Assembly: GCA_044220955.1 (NCBI GenBank)
Contig: JBGAQA010000017.1
Coordinates: 1 to 53,726 of the forward strand
DNA length: 53,726 nt
Direction of reading: 5' to 3'
Source: Sandaracinaceae bacterium
GTDB taxonomy: Bacteria > Myxococcota_A > Polyangia > Polyangiales > Sandaracinaceae
A program made the translations under genes and the position numbers. Under the pieces are notes generated by a model. That model ran no database searches and was not told the origin of the DNA. It saw nothing but the letters and a program-made list of their open reading frames with translations. Shown one piece after another: positions 16,053 through 40,118 of this stretch. How positions within the stretch are numbered: the stretch's first letter is position 1; every line of letters begins with the position of its first letter.

Positions 16053-17429
16053 GTGCCTCCACTCTCCCATGCGCTCCTGCTCCAGGGGGGCTCCAGCTTC
16101 GGCGGGCCTCTGCCGGAGATCGCCCTCATCGTGGTCTCGGCGCTCGTGGGAGCGGTCCTCTCGGGGCTGACGACGGCGCTCGCGGCGTTTCCCCCCGAGC
16201 GCGTCCTGGCCCTGCGCGACGAGGGCGGCGCGGACGGCAAGACGGCGGCGCGGCTCGTCGAGCACCGCAAGACGATCCGCGCCCGCATCCTCGCCGGACG
16301 GGTGCTCTCGGTCGCGTCGGTCTCGGCGTTCACGGCGCACCTCGTCGCGAACGTCCTCGACGACGAGGGCCTCGTGCTCGGTGCGGTCTTCGGCGCCGCC
16401 CTCGCGTACGCGATCCTGGCCGAGGTGGCCCAGACGCTGGCGCGGTCCCGTGCGAACTCGATCACGATGCCGCTGCTGCGGGCATGCTATCCGCTGGAGC
16501 TGCTGCTCGCGCCCTTCGCGCTCCCGATCCAGCTCGTCGCCCGTTTCGCCGAGCGCGCCTTCCCGGAGGACTCGGTCGCCGTCGCGCCCGAGATCGCCGA
16601 GCGCGAGGTGGAGCACCTCATCGAGAAGCGTGAGGAAGAAGGCACGCTCGAGGGTGCGAGCATGCTCCTCAACGTGCTCGAGCTGAAGGACACCCTCGTT
16701 CGCGAGGTCATGGTCCCGCGCACGCGCATGGTCGCGATCGCGAAGGACACTCCGATGGAGGAGGTCGTCCGGCGCGCGATCGCCGAGGGTCACAGCCGCT
16801 ATCCGGTCTACGGTGAGAAGATCGACAAGATCGAGGGCATTCTCTACACCAAGGATCTCTTCGCCGCGTCGCGCAGCGCCGAGCCGCCGACGCTCGCGAG
16901 GCTCGTGCGCGGCAAGGTGCTCTTCGTCCCGGAGACGCAGAAGATCGACGCGCTGCTGCGCGAGATGCAGGCGAAGCGGCAGCACCTCGCGGTCGCCATC
17001 GACGAGTTCGGTGGGACGAGCGGGATCGTGACGCTCGAGGACGTCCTCGAGGAGATCGTCGGCGAGATCCACGACGAGCACGACACCGACGAGGCGCTCG
17101 TCACGGAGGTCGAGCCGGGCCGCTACCTCGCGGACGCGCGCGTCTCGATCCACGACCTCGGCGAGATGCTCTCGGCGTCGCTGGTGAAGGCGGAGGAGAG
17201 CGGGTTCGACTCGCTCGGGGGCCTCGTCATCGATCTCGCGGGCCGCGTGCCCGAGATCGGCGAGCGCGTGCGCCTCGACGGCTTCGACTTCCTCGTCAAG
17301 GACGCCGACGAGCGTCGTGTCCGCCGGGTCGAGATCCAGCGTCGCGACACGGTCCGGCCCCCGCCCGCGAGCGAGACCGAGGCCCCGGAGCCCGCGGTGC
17401 GCACGACGCCCAAGGAGACCACCGCCTGA
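16053..17429 (+). CDS. Hemolysin family / CNNM (DUF21-CBS-CBS-CorC) protein
   Basis: N-terminal TM region; VREVMVPRTRM, GHSRYPV, DEFGGTSGIVTLEDVLEEIVGEIHDEHD and DSLGG. Confidence 0.92.
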   Translation: MPPLSHALLLQGGSSFGGPLPEIALIVVSALVGAVLSGLTTALAAFPPERVLALRDEGGADGKTAARLVEHRKTIRARILAGRVLSVASVSAFTAHLVANVLDDEGLVLGAVFGAALAYAILAEVAQTLARSRANSITMPLLRACYPLELLLAPFALPIQLVARFAERAFPEDSVAVAPEIAEREVEHLIEKREEEGTLEGASMLLNVLELKDTLVREVMVPRTRMVAIAKDTPMEEVVRRAIAEGHSRYPVYGEKIDKIEGILYTKDLFAASRSAEPPTLARLVRGKVLFVPETQKIDALLREMQAKRQHLAVAIDEFGGTSGIVTLEDVLEEIVGEIHDEHDTDEALVTEVEPGRYLADARVSIHDLGEMLSASLVKAEESGFDSLGGLVIDLAGRVPEIGERVRLDGFDFLVKDADERRVRRVEIQRRDTVRPPPASETEAPEPAVRTTPKETTA

Positions 17430-17857
17430 GGCCGCCGGTCGCGACGGCGGCTCCCTCGCTCGCCGCTGCGCTCGCCGACGCGCTCGGTCCCGAGGTCCGG
17501 GACGCGAACGTCGTGCGCGCATCGAGGCTCGCGCTCACGCTTCCGGACGGCGTCGCCGAGGCGGCGGATGGCCAGGCGAGCGGCGCGATCGTCACCGCGC
17601 TCGACGCGGCGAGCCTGGCGGAGGCTTCCGAGCGCCTCGGCCGAGCACGGGCGGGCCAGCGCATCGCCTGGGCGCTCCCCGTCTCACGCCCCGGGCTCGT
17701 GGGCTGGATCGCCTGCCGCGCCAGCGGCCTGAGGCCGATCGTCCTCGAGGACGCGTGCGCGGCGCTGCGGCGCGCGGGAGTCGTCGACGTGCGCGTGAGG
17801 CCCGTCGCGGGCACGCTCCCGCTCGTGGTGGTCTCGGGGCGCGCGAGCGGGCCCTGA
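17426..17857 (+). CDS. Hypothetical protein (start uncertain: CTG at 17426 or GTG at 17513)
   Basis: Track ORF 17513..17857; the frame stays open upstream to CTG 17426, which overlaps the previous TGA and follows AAGGAG. Confidence 0.45.
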   Translation: MRPPVATAAPSLAAALADALGPEVRDANVVRASRLALTLPDGVAEAADGQASGAIVTALDAASLAEASERLGRARAGQRIAWALPVSRPGLVGWIACRASGLRPIVLEDACAALRRAGVVDVRVRPVAGTLPLVVVSGRASGP

Positions 17858-17930: not shown

Positions 17931-19238
17931 GTGCGTGCCGCTCACCTCGCCAGCGCGTTCTCGCTCGCGGCGGCGGTGGCTCTCGCAGGCTGCGGCGCCA
18001 AGACCGGCCTGGACGTCCCGGACACGAACGTCGACGCGGGGCGCCCACGGGACGGGGGCGTGGACGCGGGTCCGCGCGACGCGGGCCGCGATGCTCTCAC
18101 CGACGCCGCAGTCCCGTGCATCGTGCTCGACCCCGACGCGGGCCCCATCGAGCTCCCGCTCGACACGCAAGTGCTCCTCGGTCGCGCCGACGTGGTGTTC
18201 CTGATCGACGTGACCGGCTCGATGAGCCAGGAGATCGGCCACATCCAGGCCGAGCTCCGCGACACGATCGCGCCGGGCGTGCAAGCCGCGATCCCCGACG
18301 CGCAGCTGGGGGTCGCGACCTTCGCAGACTTCCCGGTCAGCGACTGCGGCGAGGCCGAAGACCGTCCCTTCAACCTCGTGCTTCCCGTCACGAGCGACCT
18401 CGCCCGCGTGCAGGCCGCGGTCAACGGCGTCGCCGTGTCGCGCGGCGGCGATCCCCCCGAGGCACAGGTCGAGGCGCTCTATCAGACGACCACGGGCGAG
18501 GGGCTCGGCACGTTCATCCCGGCGAGCTTCGGCTGTCCGGCCGGCGGCTTCGGCTTCGCGTGCTTCCGGAGCGACGCGCTGCCCGTCATCCTGCTGTTCA
18601 CGGACGACTTCTGGCACGACGGCCCCGGCAACTCGGATCCCTTCTCCCTCGCCTGCCCGAACCTGCTCGCCAGCGTCACGCCCCACGACTACGCCGACGC
18701 CGTGAGCGTGCTCCAGGCGCGCGGCGTGCGCGTCATGGGTCTGTTCTCCGGCACCGAGGCCGGGGCGCGAGCGCCGATGGATCAGATCGCGACCGACACC
18801 GGTGCGCTCGACGGGAGCGGCCGACCCCTCGTCTTCGACATCGGTGTCCGCGGTGACGCGCTGTCCGCGAGCGTCGTCGCCGCGCTGACGACGCTGTCCA
18901 ACGTCATCCGCTTCGACATCGACACGGCGCTCGTCGATCCGATTCCCGGGGACGGGGTGGATCCCCGGGCGTTCGTGCAGGCTGTCACGCCCTTGCGAGC
19001 CGACCCGATGGACGGAGTCGAGTCGATCGACGTCGCGGCCGGCGTGTTCCGGCAGGTGCGCACCGGCACGCGCGTCGTGTTCCAGCTGACCCTGCGCAAC
19101 GGCTCGGTCGCGCCGGGCGCGGGCCCGCAGGTGTTCCCCCTCGAGGTGGTCTTCCGCGGGGACCGCCGGACTCGCATCGGGAGCACGACCATCGACCTCG
19201 TGGTCCCCGGCGCCGACGGCTCCGGGTGCCCACGATGA
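17931..19238 (+). CDS. Integrin-beta-like VWA-domain lipoprotein, paralog 1
   Basis: Lipobox LAGC-GAKTGL; MIDAS-type DVVFLIDVTGSM; GGDPPEAQVEALYQ; FRSDALPVILLFTD; ends GSGCPR. Confidence 0.85.
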   Translation: MRAAHLASAFSLAAAVALAGCGAKTGLDVPDTNVDAGRPRDGGVDAGPRDAGRDALTDAAVPCIVLDPDAGPIELPLDTQVLLGRADVVFLIDVTGSMSQEIGHIQAELRDTIAPGVQAAIPDAQLGVATFADFPVSDCGEAEDRPFNLVLPVTSDLARVQAAVNGVAVSRGGDPPEAQVEALYQTTTGEGLGTFIPASFGCPAGGFGFACFRSDALPVILLFTDDFWHDGPGNSDPFSLACPNLLASVTPHDYADAVSVLQARGVRVMGLFSGTEAGARAPMDQIATDTGALDGSGRPLVFDIGVRGDALSASVVAALTTLSNVIRFDIDTALVDPIPGDGVDPRAFVQAVTPLRADPMDGVESIDVAAGVFRQVRTGTRVVFQLTLRNGSVAPGAGPQVFPLEVVFRGDRRTRIGSTTIDLVVPGADGSGCPR

Positions 19239-20512
19239 GCGCCCGACTCCGCGTCACGTGCGCGCTGGCCCTGGCCGCTGCGCTCTGCGCGGCGGGGTGC
19301 GGCGCCAAGACCGGGCTCGACACGCCCGATGCGAACGTCGACGCGGGCCGTGACGCGGGGCGCGACGCGAGCATCGACGGCGGGCGCGATGCTGGCCCGC
19401 CCATCCGGTGCATCGAGGTGCCTCCCGAGGGTGGCCGCGTCACCGCGGACTTCTCGATCCCCGCCACGCTCCAGATCGTCGACGTGATGTTCCTGATCGA
19501 CGCGACGGGCAGCATGCGCGACGAGATCGACAACGTGCGCGCCGGCCTGCGCGACGTCGTGGTGCCCGGCGTGCGCTCGGCGATCCCCGACGCCGCGTTC
19601 GGCCTGGCGTTCTTCGGGGAGTTCCCCGTCCAGCCGCACGCGCGCCCCGGCGCGCGGGTGGGCCCCTACGAGCTGCGCGGGCCGGTCACGACCGACGTCG
19701 AGCGCCTCACCGCCGCATTCGAAGGCATTCCCTCCTGGGGCAACCTCGACGACCCGGAGGCGGACGTCGAGGGACTCTTCCAGGTCGCGACCGGCGCCGG
19801 CCTCTTGCCCTACGTGGATCCCTCGTTCGGTTGTCCGGGCGGCGGGGCGGGCGGGGCGTGCTTCCGCGCGGATGCGTTCCGCGTCGTGCTCCTGGTCACC
19901 GACGCGCCGATGCACAACGGTCCGCCCGGGGTGTCGCCGATCGCCGACTATCGCTTCACCGACCCCTCGCCGCATCAGTACGCCGAGACCGTCGCCGCGC
20001 TTCGCGGGCTGGCGGTCACGGTCATCGGCCTCGGCGCCTCGGATCCCGGCAGGCCTTCGCCTCTGCCGCATCTCACGCAGCTCGTGACCGACGTCGACAC
20101 GCACCACATGCCGCTCGTGTTCGACATCGGCAACGCCGGAGATCGGATCGGGCAGGAGATCGTCTCGGCGCTCGAGACGCTCGCCGACACCGTGCCGCTC
20201 GACGTGTCGGCCGAGGTCGAGGACGTCGCCGGTGACTCCATCGACGCCAGGACCCTCGTGAGCGCGGTGCGCGCCACCTCGGCCGATCCCCCCGGGGGGG
20301 TCCGCGGGATCTCGGGGAACACCTTCGCCGGCGTCACCCCCGGCACGATCCTCACCTTCGAGGTCGACGTCGACGCCTCGTCGCTGCCCCGGAGCCCGAC
20401 GCGCCGCGAGGTGCGCGCACGCGTCGTGTTCCGCGACGCCGGGCGCAGCCGCATCGGGAACGACGACGTGCTCTTCGTCGTCCCGGGCGACGACGGACGC
20501 GGGTGCCGATGA
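19235..20512 (+). CDS. Integrin-beta-like VWA-domain lipoprotein, paralog 2
   Basis: ATGA overlap with paralog 1; AAGC-GAKTGL; DVMFLIDATGSM; GNLDDPEADVEGLFQ; FRADAFRVVLLVTD; ends GRGCR. Confidence 0.85.
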   Translation: MSARLRVTCALALAAALCAAGCGAKTGLDTPDANVDAGRDAGRDASIDGGRDAGPPIRCIEVPPEGGRVTADFSIPATLQIVDVMFLIDATGSMRDEIDNVRAGLRDVVVPGVRSAIPDAAFGLAFFGEFPVQPHARPGARVGPYELRGPVTTDVERLTAAFEGIPSWGNLDDPEADVEGLFQVATGAGLLPYVDPSFGCPGGGAGGACFRADAFRVVLLVTDAPMHNGPPGVSPIADYRFTDPSPHQYAETVAALRGLAVTVIGLGASDPGRPSPLPHLTQLVTDVDTHHMPLVFDIGNAGDRIGQEIVSALETLADTVPLDVSAEVEDVAGDSIDARTLVSAVRATSADPPGGVRGISGNTFAGVTPGTILTFEVDVDASSLPRSPTRREVRARVVFRDAGRSRIGNDDVLFVVPGDDGRGCR

Positions 20513-21759
20513 GACGCCTCGCGCTGACGTCGCTCCTCGTGCTCGGCGCGTGCGGCGCCAAGACCGGCCTTCGCGTGCCGCCGCGGCCCGACGGGGGCCC
20601 GGATGCCGCCAGGGACGCCGGGACCGACGCGCCGAGCGTGGACGCGTACGTTCCGGCGCCCTGGTGCGTCGAGGTCCCCCCCATGGAGCCTCCGCGCGAG
20701 CTGCGCATCGACTACGTGGTGCGCATCGAGGACGCCGACGTGTACTTCCTGGTCGACGTCACGGGCAGCATGGGCGGCGAGATCGCGACGATCCAGGCGC
20801 GCATCGAGGACACGATCGCCCCCGGCATCGCGGCGGCGATCCCCGAGGCGCGGCTGAGCCTCGGCCGCTTCGCCGACTACCCCCTCGGCGAGTATGGCTC
20901 GGGAGGCGACGAGGTGTTCCGTCTCGAGCAAGCGAGCACGTCGGATCTCGCCACCTTCGTCGCCGCCACGCGTCGGCTGACGCTGCAGAGCGGAGCAGAC
21001 CCGCCCGAGGCGTACGTCCCGGCGCTCTATTTCTCCGCGCGAGGGCAGGGCGCGATCGGCTTCGTCCCCCGTCCGGGCTGTCCCGAGGACAGCGTCGGCT
21101 ACCCCTGCTTCGCTCGGCGCGGAGCGCGCATCGTGCTCCTCTTCACCGATGCCGAGGCCCACGGCGGTCCCGGGGCGTCGAACGCCTACGGGGCCGACGT
21201 CTCGCCCACGCCTCCGACCTACAACGAGACCGTCGCCGCGCTGCGCGGGATCGGCGCCAAGGTGATCGGGATCTTCAGCGGCGCGCCGGACGACGGGAAC
21301 GGCCTGAGCGACGTCACGGCGCTCGCGCGCGACACCGGCGCCGTCACCAGCGACGGGACGCCGCTCGTGTTCTCGATCGACGGTGACGGCACCGGGCTCG
21401 ACGCCCGGGTGATCGACGCCGTGCGGCGCCTCGTCACCGACGTGCCCCTCGCCGTCGATCTGATGATCGAGGACGGCGCCGGGGACGCCGTCGACGTGAC
21501 GACCTTCGTGCGCTCCGTCGTCACGGACGGCGCGAGCCCGCCCGAAGGGGCGGTGGATCGGGGCGATCATTTCGAGAACGTGCGGCCGGGCACCGCCGTG
21601 TCGTTCCGCATCCTGCTCGCCAACGATCTGCTCCCGCGCGCCGCCGTCCCGCAGCGCTTCCGCATGCGCGTCACGCTGCGCGGGGACGGGGTCACCGCGC
21701 TCGAGGTGCGGGAGGTCGACGTCGTCGTGCCCTCGATCGGCGGCGACGGCTGCGACTGA
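20509..21759 (+). CDS. Integrin-beta-like VWA-domain lipoprotein, paralog 3
   Basis: ATGA overlap with paralog 2; LGAC-GAKTGL; DVYFLVDVTGSM; GADPPEAYVPALY; RIVLLFTD; ends GDGCD. Confidence 0.85.
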   Translation: MRRLALTSLLVLGACGAKTGLRVPPRPDGGPDAARDAGTDAPSVDAYVPAPWCVEVPPMEPPRELRIDYVVRIEDADVYFLVDVTGSMGGEIATIQARIEDTIAPGIAAAIPEARLSLGRFADYPLGEYGSGGDEVFRLEQASTSDLATFVAATRRLTLQSGADPPEAYVPALYFSARGQGAIGFVPRPGCPEDSVGYPCFARRGARIVLLFTDAEAHGGPGASNAYGADVSPTPPTYNETVAALRGIGAKVIGIFSGAPDDGNGLSDVTALARDTGAVTSDGTPLVFSIDGDGTGLDARVIDAVRRLVTDVPLAVDLMIEDGAGDAVDVTTFVRSVVTDGASPPEGAVDRGDHFENVRPGTAVSFRILLANDLLPRAAVPQRFRMRVTLRGDGVTALEVREVDVVVPSIGGDGCD

Positions 21760-23083: not shown

Positions 23084-24247
23084 ATGCGACCCACCCACTA
23101 CGTGCTCGTCGGTGCTCTCACCCTGGCCTCCGGGCTCGGCGTCGGCGGATGCGTCCCCCGTGGCCACCGCACGGCCGGCGGAGGAGGTGGCGGAGGCGGG
23201 GGCGGCACGTCCATGGCGGGCTGCGGCGGCGATCTCGGCGCGACCAACGCCGCGGCCAAGCTCGAGGAGTTCTTCGCGGCCACGGCGGCCTGGCAGGACG
23301 CCGCGATGGGCATCCAGCGCGACCTCCTCGGCGCGTGTCAGACCACCGGCCGGGCGCTCGGAATGAGCGACGCGGAGATGAGCGTCAACGGCGAAGGCCT
23401 CGAGCCGCTCTGCAGCACCGTCGACACGCGTCTGCGCGCGGAGATCGCGGCGCTCCGCGACTCCGCCCACGCCGAGCTGCAGGTGGACGCGCGACCGCCG
23501 CACTGCGAGGTCTCCGTGAACGCGTATGCCGACTGCATGGCGCAGTGCGAGGCACACGTGGACCCGGGGCAGATCGACCTGCAGTGCGAGGGTGGCGAGC
23601 TTCGCGGCCAGTGCGACGCGCAGTGCACGGGACACTGCGCGGTCCAGCTCGACGCGGCCTGCAGCGGCACGTGCGAGGGTTCCTGCGAGGGCACCTGCGC
23701 GGCGCGCAACGCCGACGGGAGCTGCAGCGGCCACTGCGACGGCACCTGCCACGGCTCGTGCGTCGTCGATGCGAGCGCGAGCTGCCAGGGCGAGTGCCGC
23801 GGCGGCTGCTCGGTGCAGTTCCGCGAGCCTTACTGCACCGGCACCATCCGTCGTCCGTCGGCGAGCGCGCGCTGCACGGCGTCGTGCGATGCGCACGTCG
23901 AGGCGCAGGCGCGCTGCACGCCGGGCGAGACGCACGTGGCGATGAGCGCGGGCCTCGACGCGGAGGGGCAGGCCCGCCTCGCGCGCGTGCAGGCGGCCAT
24001 CCACGACGGGATCAGCCAGATCATCTCCATCCGCACGCGCGTCGAGCGCCTTCGCGCCGCCGGCGCGCAGATCGTCCGCATCGCTCCGGAGATCCCCCAG
24101 TCGGCGGCCGCCGTCGGCATCAACGCGGTGGTCTGCGCCACGGCCGCGGCGGGCGCGATCGCCGAGGCCAGCGCGAGCGTCAGCATCTCGGTGAACGTGT
24201 CGGTGTCGATGTCGGCCAGCGTGTCCGGCTCGGCGTCGGCGCGCTGA
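23084..24247 (+). CDS. Cys-rich repeat lipoprotein, hypothetical
   Basis: Lipobox GVGGC, poly-Gly linker, many CxxxC/CxGxC repeats, a helical C-terminal part and an alternating Ser/Val tail. Confidence 0.8.
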   Translation: MRPTHYVLVGALTLASGLGVGGCVPRGHRTAGGGGGGGGGGTSMAGCGGDLGATNAAAKLEEFFAATAAWQDAAMGIQRDLLGACQTTGRALGMSDAEMSVNGEGLEPLCSTVDTRLRAEIAALRDSAHAELQVDARPPHCEVSVNAYADCMAQCEAHVDPGQIDLQCEGGELRGQCDAQCTGHCAVQLDAACSGTCEGSCEGTCAARNADGSCSGHCDGTCHGSCVVDASASCQGECRGGCSVQFREPYCTGTIRRPSASARCTASCDAHVEAQARCTPGETHVAMSAGLDAEGQARLARVQAAIHDGISQIISIRTRVERLRAAGAQIVRIAPEIPQSAAAVGINAVVCATAAAGAIAEASASVSISVNVSVSMSASVSGSASAR

Positions 24248-26078: not shown

Positions 26079-27179
26079 TCAGCGGCAGTTGCCGTCGACG
26101 CAGTTCTGGCCGGGCATGCAGTCGCCGACGGCGCTGCAGTTGCTCGTCGCTTCGTTCGTCGTCGCGCAGACCATGTCGATGCAGAAGTTGGTCTGCACGT
26201 CGAAGAGCGGGCACTGCGCGTCCTGCGTGCACGGCGAGCGGCACGCGCCGTTGTGGCAGACCGCGCCCGACGCGCAGGGCCGACCGTTGCCGCACGCGGG
26301 GTTGGTCCGGGTGTCGAGACGGCAGACGCCGCCGTCGCAGTAGTCGCCCGCAGGGCAGTCGCTGTCGACCGCGCAGCCCGCGAAGCAGCGCCCGTCGACG
26401 CAGGTCTGGCCCGCGCCGCAGTCCGCGTTCGTGCCGCAGCCCGTGACCGGCGGGATGGTCTCGTGGCAGTAGCCGTCGGCGCCGCAGGTGGCGGTGCCCG
26501 CGCAGGGGTTGCTCGCGCCGCACGCCGTCGTGCACTGCTGGTTCACGCACGCGCGGGCGGCGCCGCACTCGGTGCTGAACTGGCAGATCTCGACGAGGGG
26601 GATGCAGACGCCGGCGACGCACGTCGCGGTCGAGGCGCAGGGCGAGGTCGCGCTGCAGCCGACCTGGTGGGGGTTCTCCACGCAGCCGCCGTTGACGCAC
26701 GAGTAGCCGCTGGAGCACTCGTGTCCGGGGGAGTCGCAGCCGGGGCGGCACTCGCCGTGGCCCATCGCGTCGATGACGCACACGAGCGAGCCGTCGCCGA
26801 CCGTGTCGCACTGCGCGCTCGTGGTGCACGAGCAGTCCGTCGCCGTCGGCATCGGCTCGCGCGGCCCGAGGCAGAAGCCGCTCGTCGACTCGGCGAGCGG
26901 CCGGCACGTCGTCCCGTCGGGGCAACCGACACCGCCGACGGTGCACGTGATCGTGCAGCCGAGGGACGTGCAGGTCGAGCCCGACATGCCGCACTCGTAG
27001 CTGCACCCACAGGTGCTCCGCGTCGGCGGGTTCACTGCGCGGCAGCCGAGCCCATCGCAGAAGTAGCAGCCCGTGTCGTCGCAGTAGCGGCTCTCGTTGC
27101 TACAGCCCACGAGCGAGAACGATGCGAGACCGAGCAGGCTCACGGCCAACAAGACTCGCGGGAAGCGATGAGTGTCCAC
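26079..27179 (-). CDS. Cys-rich repeat (EGF/Dickkopf-like) lipoprotein
   Basis: GTG at 27179 after a GGAGG SD; lipobox LVGC; tandem C-x4-5-C-x4-5-C-x4-C units through to the C-terminus. Confidence 0.8.
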   Translation of the reverse strand: MDTHRFPRVLLAVSLLGLASFSLVGCSNESRYCDDTGCYFCDGLGCRAVNPPTRSTCGCSYECGMSGSTCTSLGCTITCTVGGVGCPDGTTCRPLAESTSGFCLGPREPMPTATDCSCTTSAQCDTVGDGSLVCVIDAMGHGECRPGCDSPGHECSSGYSCVNGGCVENPHQVGCSATSPCASTATCVAGVCIPLVEICQFSTECGAARACVNQQCTTACGASNPCAGTATCGADGYCHETIPPVTGCGTNADCGAGQTCVDGRCFAGCAVDSDCPAGDYCDGGVCRLDTRTNPACGNGRPCASGAVCHNGACRSPCTQDAQCPLFDVQTNFCIDMVCATTNEATSNCSAVGDCMPGQNCVDGNCR

Positions 27180-27228
27180 GTCGCACCTCCCCCGAGGCGG
27201 CGGGCGCCTCGGGCTTCGGCCGGGTCCT

Positions 27229-27244
27229 TCCAAGATCCGGGCCA
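27229..27244 (-). promoter_or_regulatory. Putative sigma-54 (-24/-12) promoter
   Basis: The minus strand reads TGGCCCGGATCTTGGA against consensus TGGCACG-N4-TTGC, about 50 bp upstream of the 27179 start. Confidence 0.55.
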
Positions 27245-27374
27245 GGGGCGAACAGCGCCCCGTCCGCGCCATTGTGAGCGAATCGCGGACGATCCGCGAG
27301 AACCGTGCGGGTGGCGCGAACCCTCGTTCACATGCGCCGACGTGAACGTGCCCGGCGGCGTGTACACTCCGCGG

Positions 27375-27974
27375 GTGTCTCGGGTCGCCTTCGCGTTCGG
27401 CGTCTTGCTGGGCACGGGCTGTGCGCCCGCGGCCGTGACGGGTCCCGGGCCGGCGCGCACCGTCACCGTGCTCGCGGCGGCGCTCCGCGGCGCGGACGTG
27501 GCGGCCATCGCGGGCGCGACCGGTCGCTCGGAGGCGGACGTCGCGGCCAGCGAGGCGACGAATGGGCGCGAGCTGAGCGCCCTCGGCGAGACGCTCGCCC
27601 GTGCGCCCGTCGAGCGCGCGGCGCGGGTCACCTCCGCCGACGGGACCGTCGTCGCCCTGGTCCTGGACGGCGACGCGTGGCGCGTCGATCGGGGCGTGCT
27701 GGGCCGGCCCTGCCTCGATCGCCCGGCCGACGCGGTGGTGGCGCTCCACGACGCGCTCGCCCGCTCACGTCTTCAGGCCGCGCTGCGGCTCCTGGCCCGC
27801 GGGCCGCGCGCGGAGCTCGAGGCCGAGCTCGCCCGCTGGATCGACGGAACGGCCGACCCGGACGCGCTCGAGGTCAGTGTCCAGGGGGAGGCCGCGACGG
27901 TTCGTACGCCCACGGGCGAGCAGCTCGAGCTGGTCCGCGAGTCGGGCCAGTGGCGCGTGGTCGAGATCCGCTAG
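27375..27974 (+). CDS. Hypothetical lipoprotein with two NTF2-like repeats
   Basis: GTG at 27375; lipobox GTGC; repeated LVLDGDAWRV / LVRESGQWRV strands. Confidence 0.6.
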   Translation: MSRVAFAFGVLLGTGCAPAAVTGPGPARTVTVLAAALRGADVAAIAGATGRSEADVAASEATNGRELSALGETLARAPVERAARVTSADGTVVALVLDGDAWRVDRGVLGRPCLDRPADAVVALHDALARSRLQAALRLLARGPRAELEAELARWIDGTADPDALEVSVQGEAATVRTPTGEQLELVRESGQWRVVEIR

Positions 27975-38855: not shown

Positions 38856-40118
38856 GTGGCCAAGGACAAGGACAAGAAGAAGGATTCCTCCGGGGACGAC
38901 GAGCTCGATCTCGCGTCTCTCTCCGCGCTCGTGCGCCCCTCCGATCCGGGCGTGCCGGACGAGAAGGATGGCGACGACGCGAAGCTCGATCTGAGGGCGC
39001 TCGTCGCCTCCGTCCCGCCCCCGGCGCCGGTGGATCCAGAGCCCGTCAAGGCCGCGGCTCCGGCGGAGGCCAAGCGTGCGGAGCACGCCCCGAAAGAGGC
39101 CAAGAAGGCTGGCGCCGGCGCAGCGTCTGCCGAGAAGTCCGGCAAGCTCGCCGCGGTGGTCCCGGCGCCGGCCCCCGCGCCCGCCGCCGGTGGCGGCAGC
39201 GGCATGGGCATCGGCATCGGCCTCGGCTTCGGGCTCGCGATCGCCGCGGTGGCCTGGTTCGTGATGAACGGCTCGTCCACCACCGCCACGACGGCCGCGT
39301 CGGACTCCCCGACGACGGTCGCCTTGGCGGACCGCGCGCCCGCGCGCGCCGACCGTCTCCCGGAGGCTGCGCCGGAGATCGAGGCCGCCGACCGCGAGTC
39401 GGAGCCGGCCGCGCCCCCCGTCGCACCACCTCCGGCTGCCGATCAGATCGAGGACAGCGCCGACGACGAGATCGAGGAGGCGGAGCCGGCTCCCGCGGCG
39501 GTCGTAGCGCCCGAGTCCGACGACGACGACGAGGTCGAGGCGGACGACCACGAGGAGGAAGAGGCCCACGAGTCCGAGACGCGTCGCGCGGCCGCGTCAC
39601 GCTCGCGCCGCGGCTCGAGCGCGACGGCGTCCACCGCCTCGACGGCGTCCACCGCGGCCGCCCCCCCGCCTGCCACGCGCGTCGCGTCCGCGGACCCACC
39701 GCCCGCCACGACCGCGCGGCGGGGCGGCGGCCTCGACTCCGTCCTGGACCAGGCGCTCGGCACTTCGCGGACTGCGCCGGCGCCGACGACGACGGCCGCC
39801 CGCACCGCGTCCACGGCCCGGACCGCGCCGTCGGGTGACCTGCCCGATCAGCCCAGCCAGGCCGACGTGCGGCGCGTCCTCGCGAGCGTCATGCCGCAGA
39901 TCCGGTCGTGCGCTGGCGAGCAGGTCGGCCTCGCGGTCGCGACGCTCATGGTCCGGAGCGACGGAACCGTCGCGAGCGCGGCCGTCGCCGGTAGCCCCTT
40001 CGGCGGCACGCCGCAGGGCTCGTGCATGGAGGGCGCGCTCCGGGGCGCGCACTTCCCCGCGTTCCGGCAGACGACGTTCCGGGTCCAGTACCCCATGTCG
40101 ATCCGCCCCGCGTCCTGA
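38856..40118 (+). CDS. Single-pass membrane protein with AgmX/GltJ-like C-terminal domain
   Basis: N-terminal LDLASL / LDLRAL motifs, one TM helix, an acidic/Pro linker, and a C-domain RSC...GSCMEGALRGAHFPAF...VQYP. Confidence 0.65.
   Translation: MAKDKDKKKDSSGDDELDLASLSALVRPSDPGVPDEKDGDDAKLDLRALVASVPPPAPVDPEPVKAAAPAEAKRAEHAPKEAKKAGAGAASAEKSGKLAAVVPAPAPAPAAGGGSGMGIGIGLGFGLAIAAVAWFVMNGSSTTATTAASDSPTTVALADRAPARADRLPEAAPEIEAADRESEPAAPPVAPPPAADQIEDSADDEIEEAEPAPAAVVAPESDDDDEVEADDHEEEEAHESETRRAAASRSRRGSSATASTASTASTAAAPPPATRVASADPPPATTARRGGGLDSVLDQALGTSRTAPAPTTTAARTASTARTAPSGDLPDQPSQADVRRVLASVMPQIRSCAGEQVGLAVATLMVRSDGTVASAAVAGSPFGGTPQGSCMEGALRGAHFPAFRQTTFRVQYPMSIRPAS

Follow-up and report, generated by a model that had tools for sequence, protein, structure and literature searches.

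A three-gene cluster of integrin-beta-like lipoproteins in Sandaracinaceae and related Polyangiales

Organization of the lipoprotein cluster

The DNA analyzed here, referred to as the window, is a stretch of 53,726 nucleotides from a Sandaracinaceae bacterium (assembly GCA_044220955.1, contig JBGAQA010000017.1), and its subject of interest is a cluster of three adjacent genes, termed A, B, and C (Table 1). A sequence-only reading of the window had described three same-strand paralogous lipoprotein open reading frames joined by ATGA overlaps, and both overlaps are present as claimed. The encoded proteins have a common layout: a signal peptide, a lipobox Cys, a linker rich in Asp, Ala, Gly, and Pro, a VWA domain, and a beta-rich domain. 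The first seven mature residues, CGAKTGL, are identical in all three. Identity over the whole length is 43% for A–B and 43% for A–C, and B–C identity is about 36%. The lipobox, linker, and VWA domain of the initial description stood, whereas the placement of the beta-rich domain solely at the C-terminus did not: part of the match to the integrin hybrid domain comes from strands that precede the VWA domain. Likewise, the five integrin-like motifs do occur in the order originally given, but as a composite rather than within one protein: A supplies four of them, C supplies the first, and the variant GNLDDPEA belongs to B.

No TSP3/COMP or EGF-like Pfam match was found in A, B, or C. The proteins stop a few residues past the hybrid-like domain, and PSI, EGF repeats, beta tail, transmembrane helix, and NPxY tail are not present. 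A promoter scan returned no sigma-70 sites and a single terminator-like site within C, at chance level. In one metatranscriptome, 8% of the words were matched, and the pieces obtained, of at most 210 bases, all lie within A, which is uninformative on expression or co-transcription.

Table 1. Features of the A-B-C cluster and locations of its long paralogues. MIDAS, metal-ion-dependent adhesion site; ADMIDAS, site adjacent to MIDAS; SyMBS, synergistic metal-binding site; Ig, immunoglobulin; pLDDT, the predicted value of the local distance difference test; rmsd, root-mean-square deviation. G000 is the genome of the window; C numbers denote its contigs.
Feature	Position	Strand	Remarks
Gene A	17931..19238	+	435 aa lipoprotein, lipobox Cys21; integrin-beta-like head; clade A 100/95; fold predicted via homology to B
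Gene A metal residues			MIDAS D93-T95-S97, E177, D225; Gly172 at SyMBS Asn position; Gln100 at first ADMIDAS position
Gene B	19235..20512	+	425 aa from ATG at 19235; lipobox Cys22; betaI inserted in hybrid-like Ig domain; clade B 100/99
Gene B metal residues, full integrin-type set			MIDAS D89-T91-S93, E175, D223; ADMIDAS D96, E97; SyMBS E129, N170, D172, P174
Gene C	20509..21759	+	416 aa lipoprotein, lipobox Cys16; integrin-beta-like head; clade C 100/97; fold predicted via homology to B
Gene C metal residues			MIDAS D84-T86-S88, E168, D215; Gly163 at SyMBS Asn position; Gly91 at first ADMIDAS position
ATGA overlap, A stop / B start	19235..19238	+	
ATGA overlap, B stop / C start	20509..20512	+	
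B mature N-terminus, C-G-x-[KR]-x-x-L-x-x-P	19298..19327	+	10 residues, conserved; candidate sorting/docking peptide
Equivalent N-terminal peptide in A	17991..18020	+	
Equivalent N-terminal peptide in C	20551..20580	+	
B tether	19328..19387	+	flexible, acidic, Asp-Ala-Gly; pLDDT < 50 for mature residues 1-30; least conserved segment
B hybrid-like domain, N-terminal strands	19397..19471	+	invariant Cys at mature 38; model 34-400 aligned to beta3 65-435
B betaI (VWA) domain	19472..20191	+	Z 23.5, rmsd 2.7, 211 residues vs beta6 betaI (5ffg_B)
AAC codon, B-specific Asn at SyMBS position	19742..19744	+	
B hybrid-like Ig domain, C-terminal part	20192..20506	+	near-invariant Cys at end
Long TSP3 paralogues	G000:C31, C55, C188, C222, C239, C249, C266 (two in tandem), C271		

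Integrin-beta-like identity of the heads

Taken singly, the sequences carry a weak signal: A matches Pfam Integrin_beta at E 6e-4, below the curated cut-off, and matches to PDB sequences have E > 1. A profile was therefore built from 63 members of the cluster and searched against PDB sequences at E 1. It yielded 63 matches, and 59 of the 60 listed are integrin beta chains, with beta8 the best (E 5e-9) and no other VWA protein among those 60. The register of the motifs was taken from HMMER alignments to beta6 and beta8; identity between the family and integrin beta is 13-21%.

The fold of B was modeled with AlphaFold. The model of the mature protein has a mean pLDDT of 88.8, with residues 1-30 disordered, and its strands flank the VWA domain on both sides. 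In a Foldseek search, all 49 matches listed are integrin entries, with approximately 400 columns aligned and a best E of 1.2e-18. Compared with 48,161 representative chains, the model gave seven integrin beta heads or Pactolus as its top seven matches (Z 21.9-23.6), and the best non-integrin VWA protein reached Z 19.2. Residues 34-400 of the model align to residues 65-435 of beta3 (9lt3_B) over 307 residues, with rmsd 3.7 and Z 23.6. Because this alignment spans both the hybrid and the betaI domains, the VWA domain of B appears to interrupt an Ig-like domain at the two insertion points known from integrins.

A chance resemblance to integrin beta was rejected on the family profile (E 5e-9 against beta8) and the fold match (E 1e-18), and a generic VWA identity on the profile matches, which are integrin beta, and on the fold scores of B (Z 23.6 vs 19.2 for the best other VWA). 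The betaI-like identity first read from the letters is thus supported by profile, Foldseek, and structural comparison alike, and the best structural hits are integrin beta rather than generic VWA domains. We hold that A, B, and C share this identity together with an integrin-beta headpiece fold, as predicted by the model for B and by homology for A and C.

All 50 rows listed in a second structural comparison of B are integrin beta; alignments over betaI plus hybrid cover about 300-310 residues. They fall into groups of 12 rows at rmsd 3.9-5.3, 34 rows at 7.7-9.6, and 4 rows in which betaI alone is aligned. Both PDB entries titled closed headpiece belong to the 34 rows with the poorer fit, and the model of B would therefore have an open-like hinge angle. 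Two other proteins also align past the VWA domain, namely a Catenulispora VWA protein (4fx5_A; Z 18.3, 275 residues aligned, rmsd 12.5) and Plasmodium TRAP (4hql_A; Z 15.2); VWA insertion in a beta domain is therefore not unique to integrins.

Metal-site residues, loops, and cysteines

Metal-site positions were compared in an alignment of 175 proteins, comprising 69 A, 43 B, 37 C, 10 members of a further clade D, 7 C-like outliers, and 9 long paralogues, a grouping that is partly tree-based. Numbering and roles follow beta3 as described in PMC3792891, and consensus integrin motifs follow bioRxiv 2020.04.29.069435. The MIDAS Asp is present in 175/175 proteins, its second position is Thr or Ser in 175/175, and the equivalents of Glu220 and Asp251 are found in 174/175 and 175/175, respectively. 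By these residues, the Glu-completed MIDAS of the family reads as beta type. As a refinement of the sequence-only reading, the MIDAS is mostly D-x-T-x-S and not D-x-S-x-S, with Thr replacing the first Ser of the integrin motif.

Residues at the other two metal-site positions separate B from its neighbors. Asn occupies the SyMBS position in all 43 B proteins, and Gly in all 132 others. The first ADMIDAS Asp is present in 43/43 B, 20/69 A, and 7/37 C; both ADMIDAS acids occur in every B protein, the second being Glu. B further carries Glu at the first SyMBS acid, and 13 of its positions are diagnostic for the clade, one of them an invariant Trp next to the SyMBS loop. When a tree without eukaryotic rows is read with the long paralogues as outgroup, the SyMBS Asn of B looks like a gain within the family, not a relic. 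Each clade also has its own consensus at the loop after the SyMBS acid (the specificity-loop position) and at the loop after strand 5. Of the two functional branches originally put forward, a heteromer or a ligand repertoire, these clade-specific metal-site and loop residues favor the repertoire.

Four Cys residues besides the lipobox Cys are near-invariant across A, B, C, and D, and the first and last of them probably pair across the hybrid domain. In integrins, Arg261 of beta3 docks in the propeller of the alpha chain; no conserved basic residue was found at the equivalent position of the family.

Clades, gene order, and distribution

In a 72-row IQ-TREE tree, A, B, and C each form one clade, with support of 100/95, 100/99, and 100/97, respectively. 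The labels of 11 stand-alone rows in this tree came from an earlier quick tree, so that the independent test lies in the 52 rows from multi-gene clusters, and 52/52 of these land in the clade that matches their gene position, once the two labels of L025, exchanged by a sorting artifact, are set right. A FastTree of 175 rows agrees on A, B, and C and adds clade D. Clade D (L158-L161, L170-L175) consists of one short-form gene per genome in family f16, and is placed as sister to B (FastTree support 90) yet has Gly at the SyMBS position.

The gene content of 72 named loci is ABC in 25, AB in 19, A in 19, C in 6, and AC in 3, with 7 of the AB and 6 of the A loci ending within 1.5 kb of the last gene; the order is never permuted. 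Relatives with names belong to Polyangiales, mostly Sandaracinaceae. We also surveyed 151 sampled genomes of the order, with G112 left out; many of the assemblies are fragmented, and kin among the genomes are non-independent. A was scored as present at 480 bits or more in 41 genomes, with G037 added by tree and G035 as partial, and B was scored above 500 bits, the next score being 423. On this basis, A is found in 43 genomes and B in 33. A occurs without B in 10 of the 43, including G023 (98% complete) and G150 (100%), as well as G104, where a contig end cuts the locus. Among the 33 B genomes, C is adjacent in 21 (split in G064), elsewhere in 6, and not found in 6. The genomes behind these counts of missing B or C are 90-100% complete. 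Adjacent trios are present in four families of the sample, and in family f16 a single short form was found in 19 of 20 genomes. Presence is thus nested (A, then B, then C), not all-or-none.

On these results, A, B, and C are three old clades. A recent lineage-specific triplication was rejected on the three bootstrap-100 clades and the fixed A-B-C order; a lineage-specific duplication with no conserved order, which the sequence-only reading had named as the outcome that would speak against it, is therefore not what the data show. An obligate trimer is unlikely because A lacks B in 10/43 genomes and, among the 33 with B, C lies elsewhere in 6 and was not found in another 6, and the heteromer branch of the earlier proposal is accordingly weakened in its obligate form.

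Comparison with known systems

One close likeness is to the integrin beta headpiece (beta3, beta6, beta8, beta7, beta1, beta2). It comprises a betaI domain set in a hybrid-like Ig domain at the same insertion points and a MIDAS completed by the Glu220 and Asp251 equivalents, to which B adds the SyMBS Asn and both ADMIDAS acids. In contrast to integrin beta, the family has a lipid anchor and tether and is devoid of PSI, EGF, tail, transmembrane, and cytoplasmic parts. In addition, the first MIDAS Ser is replaced by Thr, the specificity loop is short and lacks its disulfide, and a bacterial Cys-Cys loop precedes strand 4. By analogy, the trio would work like an integrin beta head yet is no integrin subunit, the stalk, membrane helix, and tail being absent.

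Myxobacterial VWA lipoproteins are known as surface adhesins (PMC9946355; bioRxiv 2023.10.19.562135). CglD of M. xanthus is described as a beta-integrin-like protein of 1130 aa, encoded by a single gene, with TSP3 repeats, EGF-like domains, and a MIDAS (bioRxiv 10.1101/2023.10.19.562135), and according to the same preprint HHpred matches it to beta3, it contains a beta-sandwich, and diverse delta-proteobacteria have homologues (bioRxiv 2023.10.19.562135). The trio resembles it as myxobacterial beta-integrin-like lipoproteins with a MIDAS, and TSP3 repeats are common to CglD and the long paralogues of the trio. Orthology to CglD, compared by hidden Markov model (HMM) and description, was rejected: NF033765 (cut-off 400 bits) scores 0 of 63 family members at E 0.1. 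On the long paralogues, this HMM covers only the repeats, not the head. Distant CglD-HMM relatives belong to a different VWA family, with only the first motif in common (hhalign probability 12.9, 23 columns). Three TSP3 plus VWA lipoproteins of 850-890 aa (L151, L153, L154) match CglD HMM positions 439-972, and their VWA family differs from that of the trio. None of 81 genomes gave a CglD match over the cut-off, and none of 80 matches is named CglD.

CglB is likewise a VWA lipoprotein of approximately 400 aa with a MIDAS, and CglB-like proteins of Polyangiales often carry the N-terminal motif of the trio. CglB is described as alphaI-like with a Thr-completed MIDAS (PMC9946355), whereas the trio is betaI-like with a Glu-completed MIDAS. 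Orthology to CglB was rejected, NF033757 (cut-off 200 bits) touching one of 63 members at E 0.035. Since neither HMM scores the trio, the family link to CglB and CglD that had been drawn from the sequence is weakened.

A protein of Trichodesmium erythraeum is reported to be homologous to > 450 beta-subunit residues and to have no EGF repeats or transmembrane segment (PMC3192720; bioRxiv 2020.04.29.069435). It is presented there as a lone case attributed to gene transfer; by that description it differs from the family studied here, which has multiple copies and is old within a single bacterial order. In listings of the open-licence literature, neither the family nor its three-gene cluster was found described. 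Bacterial beta-integrin-like proteins as such were already known; no record was found there of a lipoprotein family reduced to betaI plus hybrid, with an ordered three-gene set of old origin and a member that holds the full three-site motif.

A conserved N-terminal peptide

The pattern C-G-x-[KR]-x-x-L-x-x-P follows the lipobox in 63/69 A, 39/42 B, 30/36 C, and 10/10 D proteins, and the linker behind it is variable. The genome of the window has 1,428 crude lipobox candidates, and a shorter form of the pattern is present in 9 of them, with 1.2 expected. Two carriers are the genome's two best CglB-like proteins. When CglB-like proteins were parsed from the 25 best loci of the order, 11 of 24 bore the peptide (one match is loose). 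Non-VWA lipoproteins are also headed by it. Besides the trio, lipoproteins that begin with a C-G-x-[KR]-T-x-L peptide lie at G000:C256:12348-13724, C238:9074-10246, C269:33636-36236, C294:1955-3277, C99:19348-22260, and C257:17288-18097, the two best CglB-like proteins being among them.

The peptide shares the residues at positions 1, 2, 4, 7, and 10 after the lipidated Cys with LptM, with weak HMM matches (E 0.005-0.055). LptM is a tiny LptD-binding protein, while here the peptide heads proteins of 400 residues. The essential N-terminus of LptM is reported to bind LptD (bioRxiv 2025.01.03.631273), and LptD has been implicated in surface display of lipoproteins (PMC12065857). LptD was not detected with the Pfam model in the genome of the window, which is 88% complete. 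We hypothesize, solely by analogy, that the peptide could be a display, sorting, or docking signal. Because it also occurs on non-VWA lipoproteins and resembles the LptM N-terminus, it may be a general sorting signal.

Proposed function and alternatives

The explanation we prefer, to which we give about an even chance, is that the trio represents co-expressed, lipid-tethered, alpha-less integrin-beta heads that form a metal-dependent adhesin repertoire, each with its own specificity and metal control. It builds on the architecture, the clades, the fixed order, the beta-type metal residues, and the clade differences observed above; export, surface display, ligand binding, and hinge allostery would follow the examples of integrins, CglB, and CglD. 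A, B, and C are old paralogues, each a predicted minimal headpiece on a flexible tether of 25-40 residues, with no linked alpha-like partner; they are presumably co-transcribed, exported as outer-membrane lipoproteins, and displayed at the surface. Each head would use a divalent ion at its MIDAS to hold an acidic ligand, and with its own loops around the metal site each would contribute to a repertoire rather than to a fixed trimer. Such a repertoire is consistent with the retention of C where it has moved away (6/33 B genomes) and with A alone in 10/43 genomes. A difference in calcium dependence is expected for B, the only one of the three with the complete integrin set of three-site residues. 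More speculatively, since the tether joins the hybrid domain, a pull between anchor and ligand would be transmitted across the hinge of betaI and hybrid and could favor an open, high-affinity state.

Several points weigh against this explanation. It presumes surface exposure, expression, and a ligand for the heads. The open-like hinge of B is one predicted state and is not evidence of motion. When the C-terminal fragment of B, which lacks the N-terminal strands, was folded alone, 6 of the top 50 rows were integrin hybrid segments (Z 3.9-4.7), on a par with other Ig-like folds, the best of which reached Z 5.5; Foldseek gave no match at E 0.001 for the isolated fragment and no integrin among its rows. 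The heads are strongly acidic, with a mean net charge of about -24 to -27, which needs explanation in a binder of acidic ligands. No conserved neighbor gene was found across the order (35 loci, crude gene calls), which leaves no pathway pointer. Finally, B lies directly behind A in 33/33 genomes, a coupling that a repertoire does not need.

This last point bears on a hetero-oligomer of A and B, optionally joined by C, where one of the beta-like heads would stand in for the alpha chain of integrins, and B, with its complete metal set, would bind but need A. Judging from gene distribution, we consider such a complex unlikely. In its favor, besides the strict placement of B and the 10 genomes with A but no B, the nearest possible B start lies at most 30 bases from the A stop in 34 of 43 named loci (a nearest-start choice favors small gaps), and B has the 13 diagnostic positions, the invariant Trp among them. 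Yet B behind A is also expected from a promoterless second gene. Moreover, A stands alone in the near-complete G023 and G150, A and C occur without B in G027 and the three AC loci, 19 of 20 genomes of family f16 have a single short form, and G013 (75% complete) carries B and A on different contigs.

A bolder form of the repertoire explanation is similarly doubtful. It would make the Polyangiales family an old, expanded set of true integrin-beta headpieces whose hinge works without an alpha chain as a force- and calcium-regulated catch-bond adhesin, with A-B-C as a specificity set, B holding a full three-ion site, the LptM-like peptide serving as the display signal of myxobacterial VWA adhesins, and the family being sister to or source of the eukaryotic beta head.

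We regard it as rather improbable that the trio serves a Glt-type gliding machine as exchangeable adhesin tips, which the N-terminal peptide would dock on a barrel platform in the outer membrane as modeled for CglB. An AlphaFold model places CglB residues 4-9 between GltA and GltB (PMC11761067), and the peptide is shared with the CglB-like proteins listed above. The genome has GltC-, GltG-, and GltE-like genes on other contigs (271, 413, and 170 bits, all below cut-offs) and only distant CglB-like proteins, the best at 69 bits against a cut-off of 200, with the trio not among them. On the other hand, the cluster lies outside all Glt-like clusters and has no conserved gliding neighbor, and the motif, being LptM-like and present on non-VWA lipoproteins, may be a general sorting signal.

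An orientation toward the periplasm or the inside of the envelope, with the MIDAS serving contacts to other proteins (as a scaffold, chaperone adaptor, or metal-dependent sensor) and not adhesion, is equally improbable: outer-membrane lipoproteins mostly face the periplasm (PMC12065857), the tether is short, with the second Cys at mature position 24-59, and one copy is retained even in 3.1-3.3 Mb genomes of the order (G023, G037), but nine long paralogues carry calcium-binding TSP3 repeats, an arrangement common to the surface-exposed CglD, and the genes next to the cluster include no conserved ATPase or envelope partner.

If the heads do form a surface repertoire, they would offer a simple model for an integrin head working without its usual partner chain. 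The sources cited above offer two bacterial examples bearing on the origin of the integrin beta head and its hinge allostery, one a lone protein from a cyanobacterium and the other CglD, which is larger. With its many members, a family of soluble, single-chain betaI-plus-hybrid proteins of 370 residues allows one to ask directly if the hinge can open, and if metal control at three sites can operate, when there is no alpha chain; the contrast of B with A and C offers a natural test of the SyMBS Asn and the ADMIDAS, and the family supplies outgroups for beta-subunit trees. It also provides candidate adhesins for a myxobacterial lineage whose searched genomes yielded no CglB or CglD orthologues, and a candidate 10-residue display signal.

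Wider family and genomic surroundings

The genome of the window encodes nine further full-length paralogues in which TSP3 repeats (Pfam PF18884, 9/9) precede the betaI-plus-hybrid head. A frameshifted paralogue on C4 and a contig-cut one on C104 were also seen. Beyond this genome, 910 representative proteins out of 1.84 billion match the profile at E 1e-30. With sampling extended outside the order, a match at 1e-8 was obtained in 27 of the 81 genomes taken from phylum and order, and the distant matches are mostly long forms. No fusion to an alpha-like propeller was found among 6 longer matches, in a weak search; FG-GAP repeat proteins give 71 matches in the genome of the window, none of them on this contig.

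By crude gene calls, the gene before A encodes a CBS domain in 9 of 35 loci and is phosphatase-like in 10 of 35. In the window, a CBS-domain gene (TlyC/CorC-like by eye) and a 114-aa open reading frame lie upstream of A on the same strand (16053-17857, +), a pairing seen only in close relatives. A weak match to the GltJ model (56 bits vs a cut-off of 450) lies at 38856-40118 (+), about 17 kb downstream of the cluster, and a Cys-rich lipoprotein-like open reading frame with repeated Cys motifs at 26079-27749 (-). A TSP3-type paralogue (L132:5251-9913, on G000:C239) is situated two genes from a nucleoside-phosphorylase-like and phosphatase-like pair, and the same pair flanks A-B in several genomes of the family. 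Two genes past C, at 23084-24247 (+), the window encodes another Cys-rich lipoprotein, which is found beside the cluster in 5 same-genus loci.

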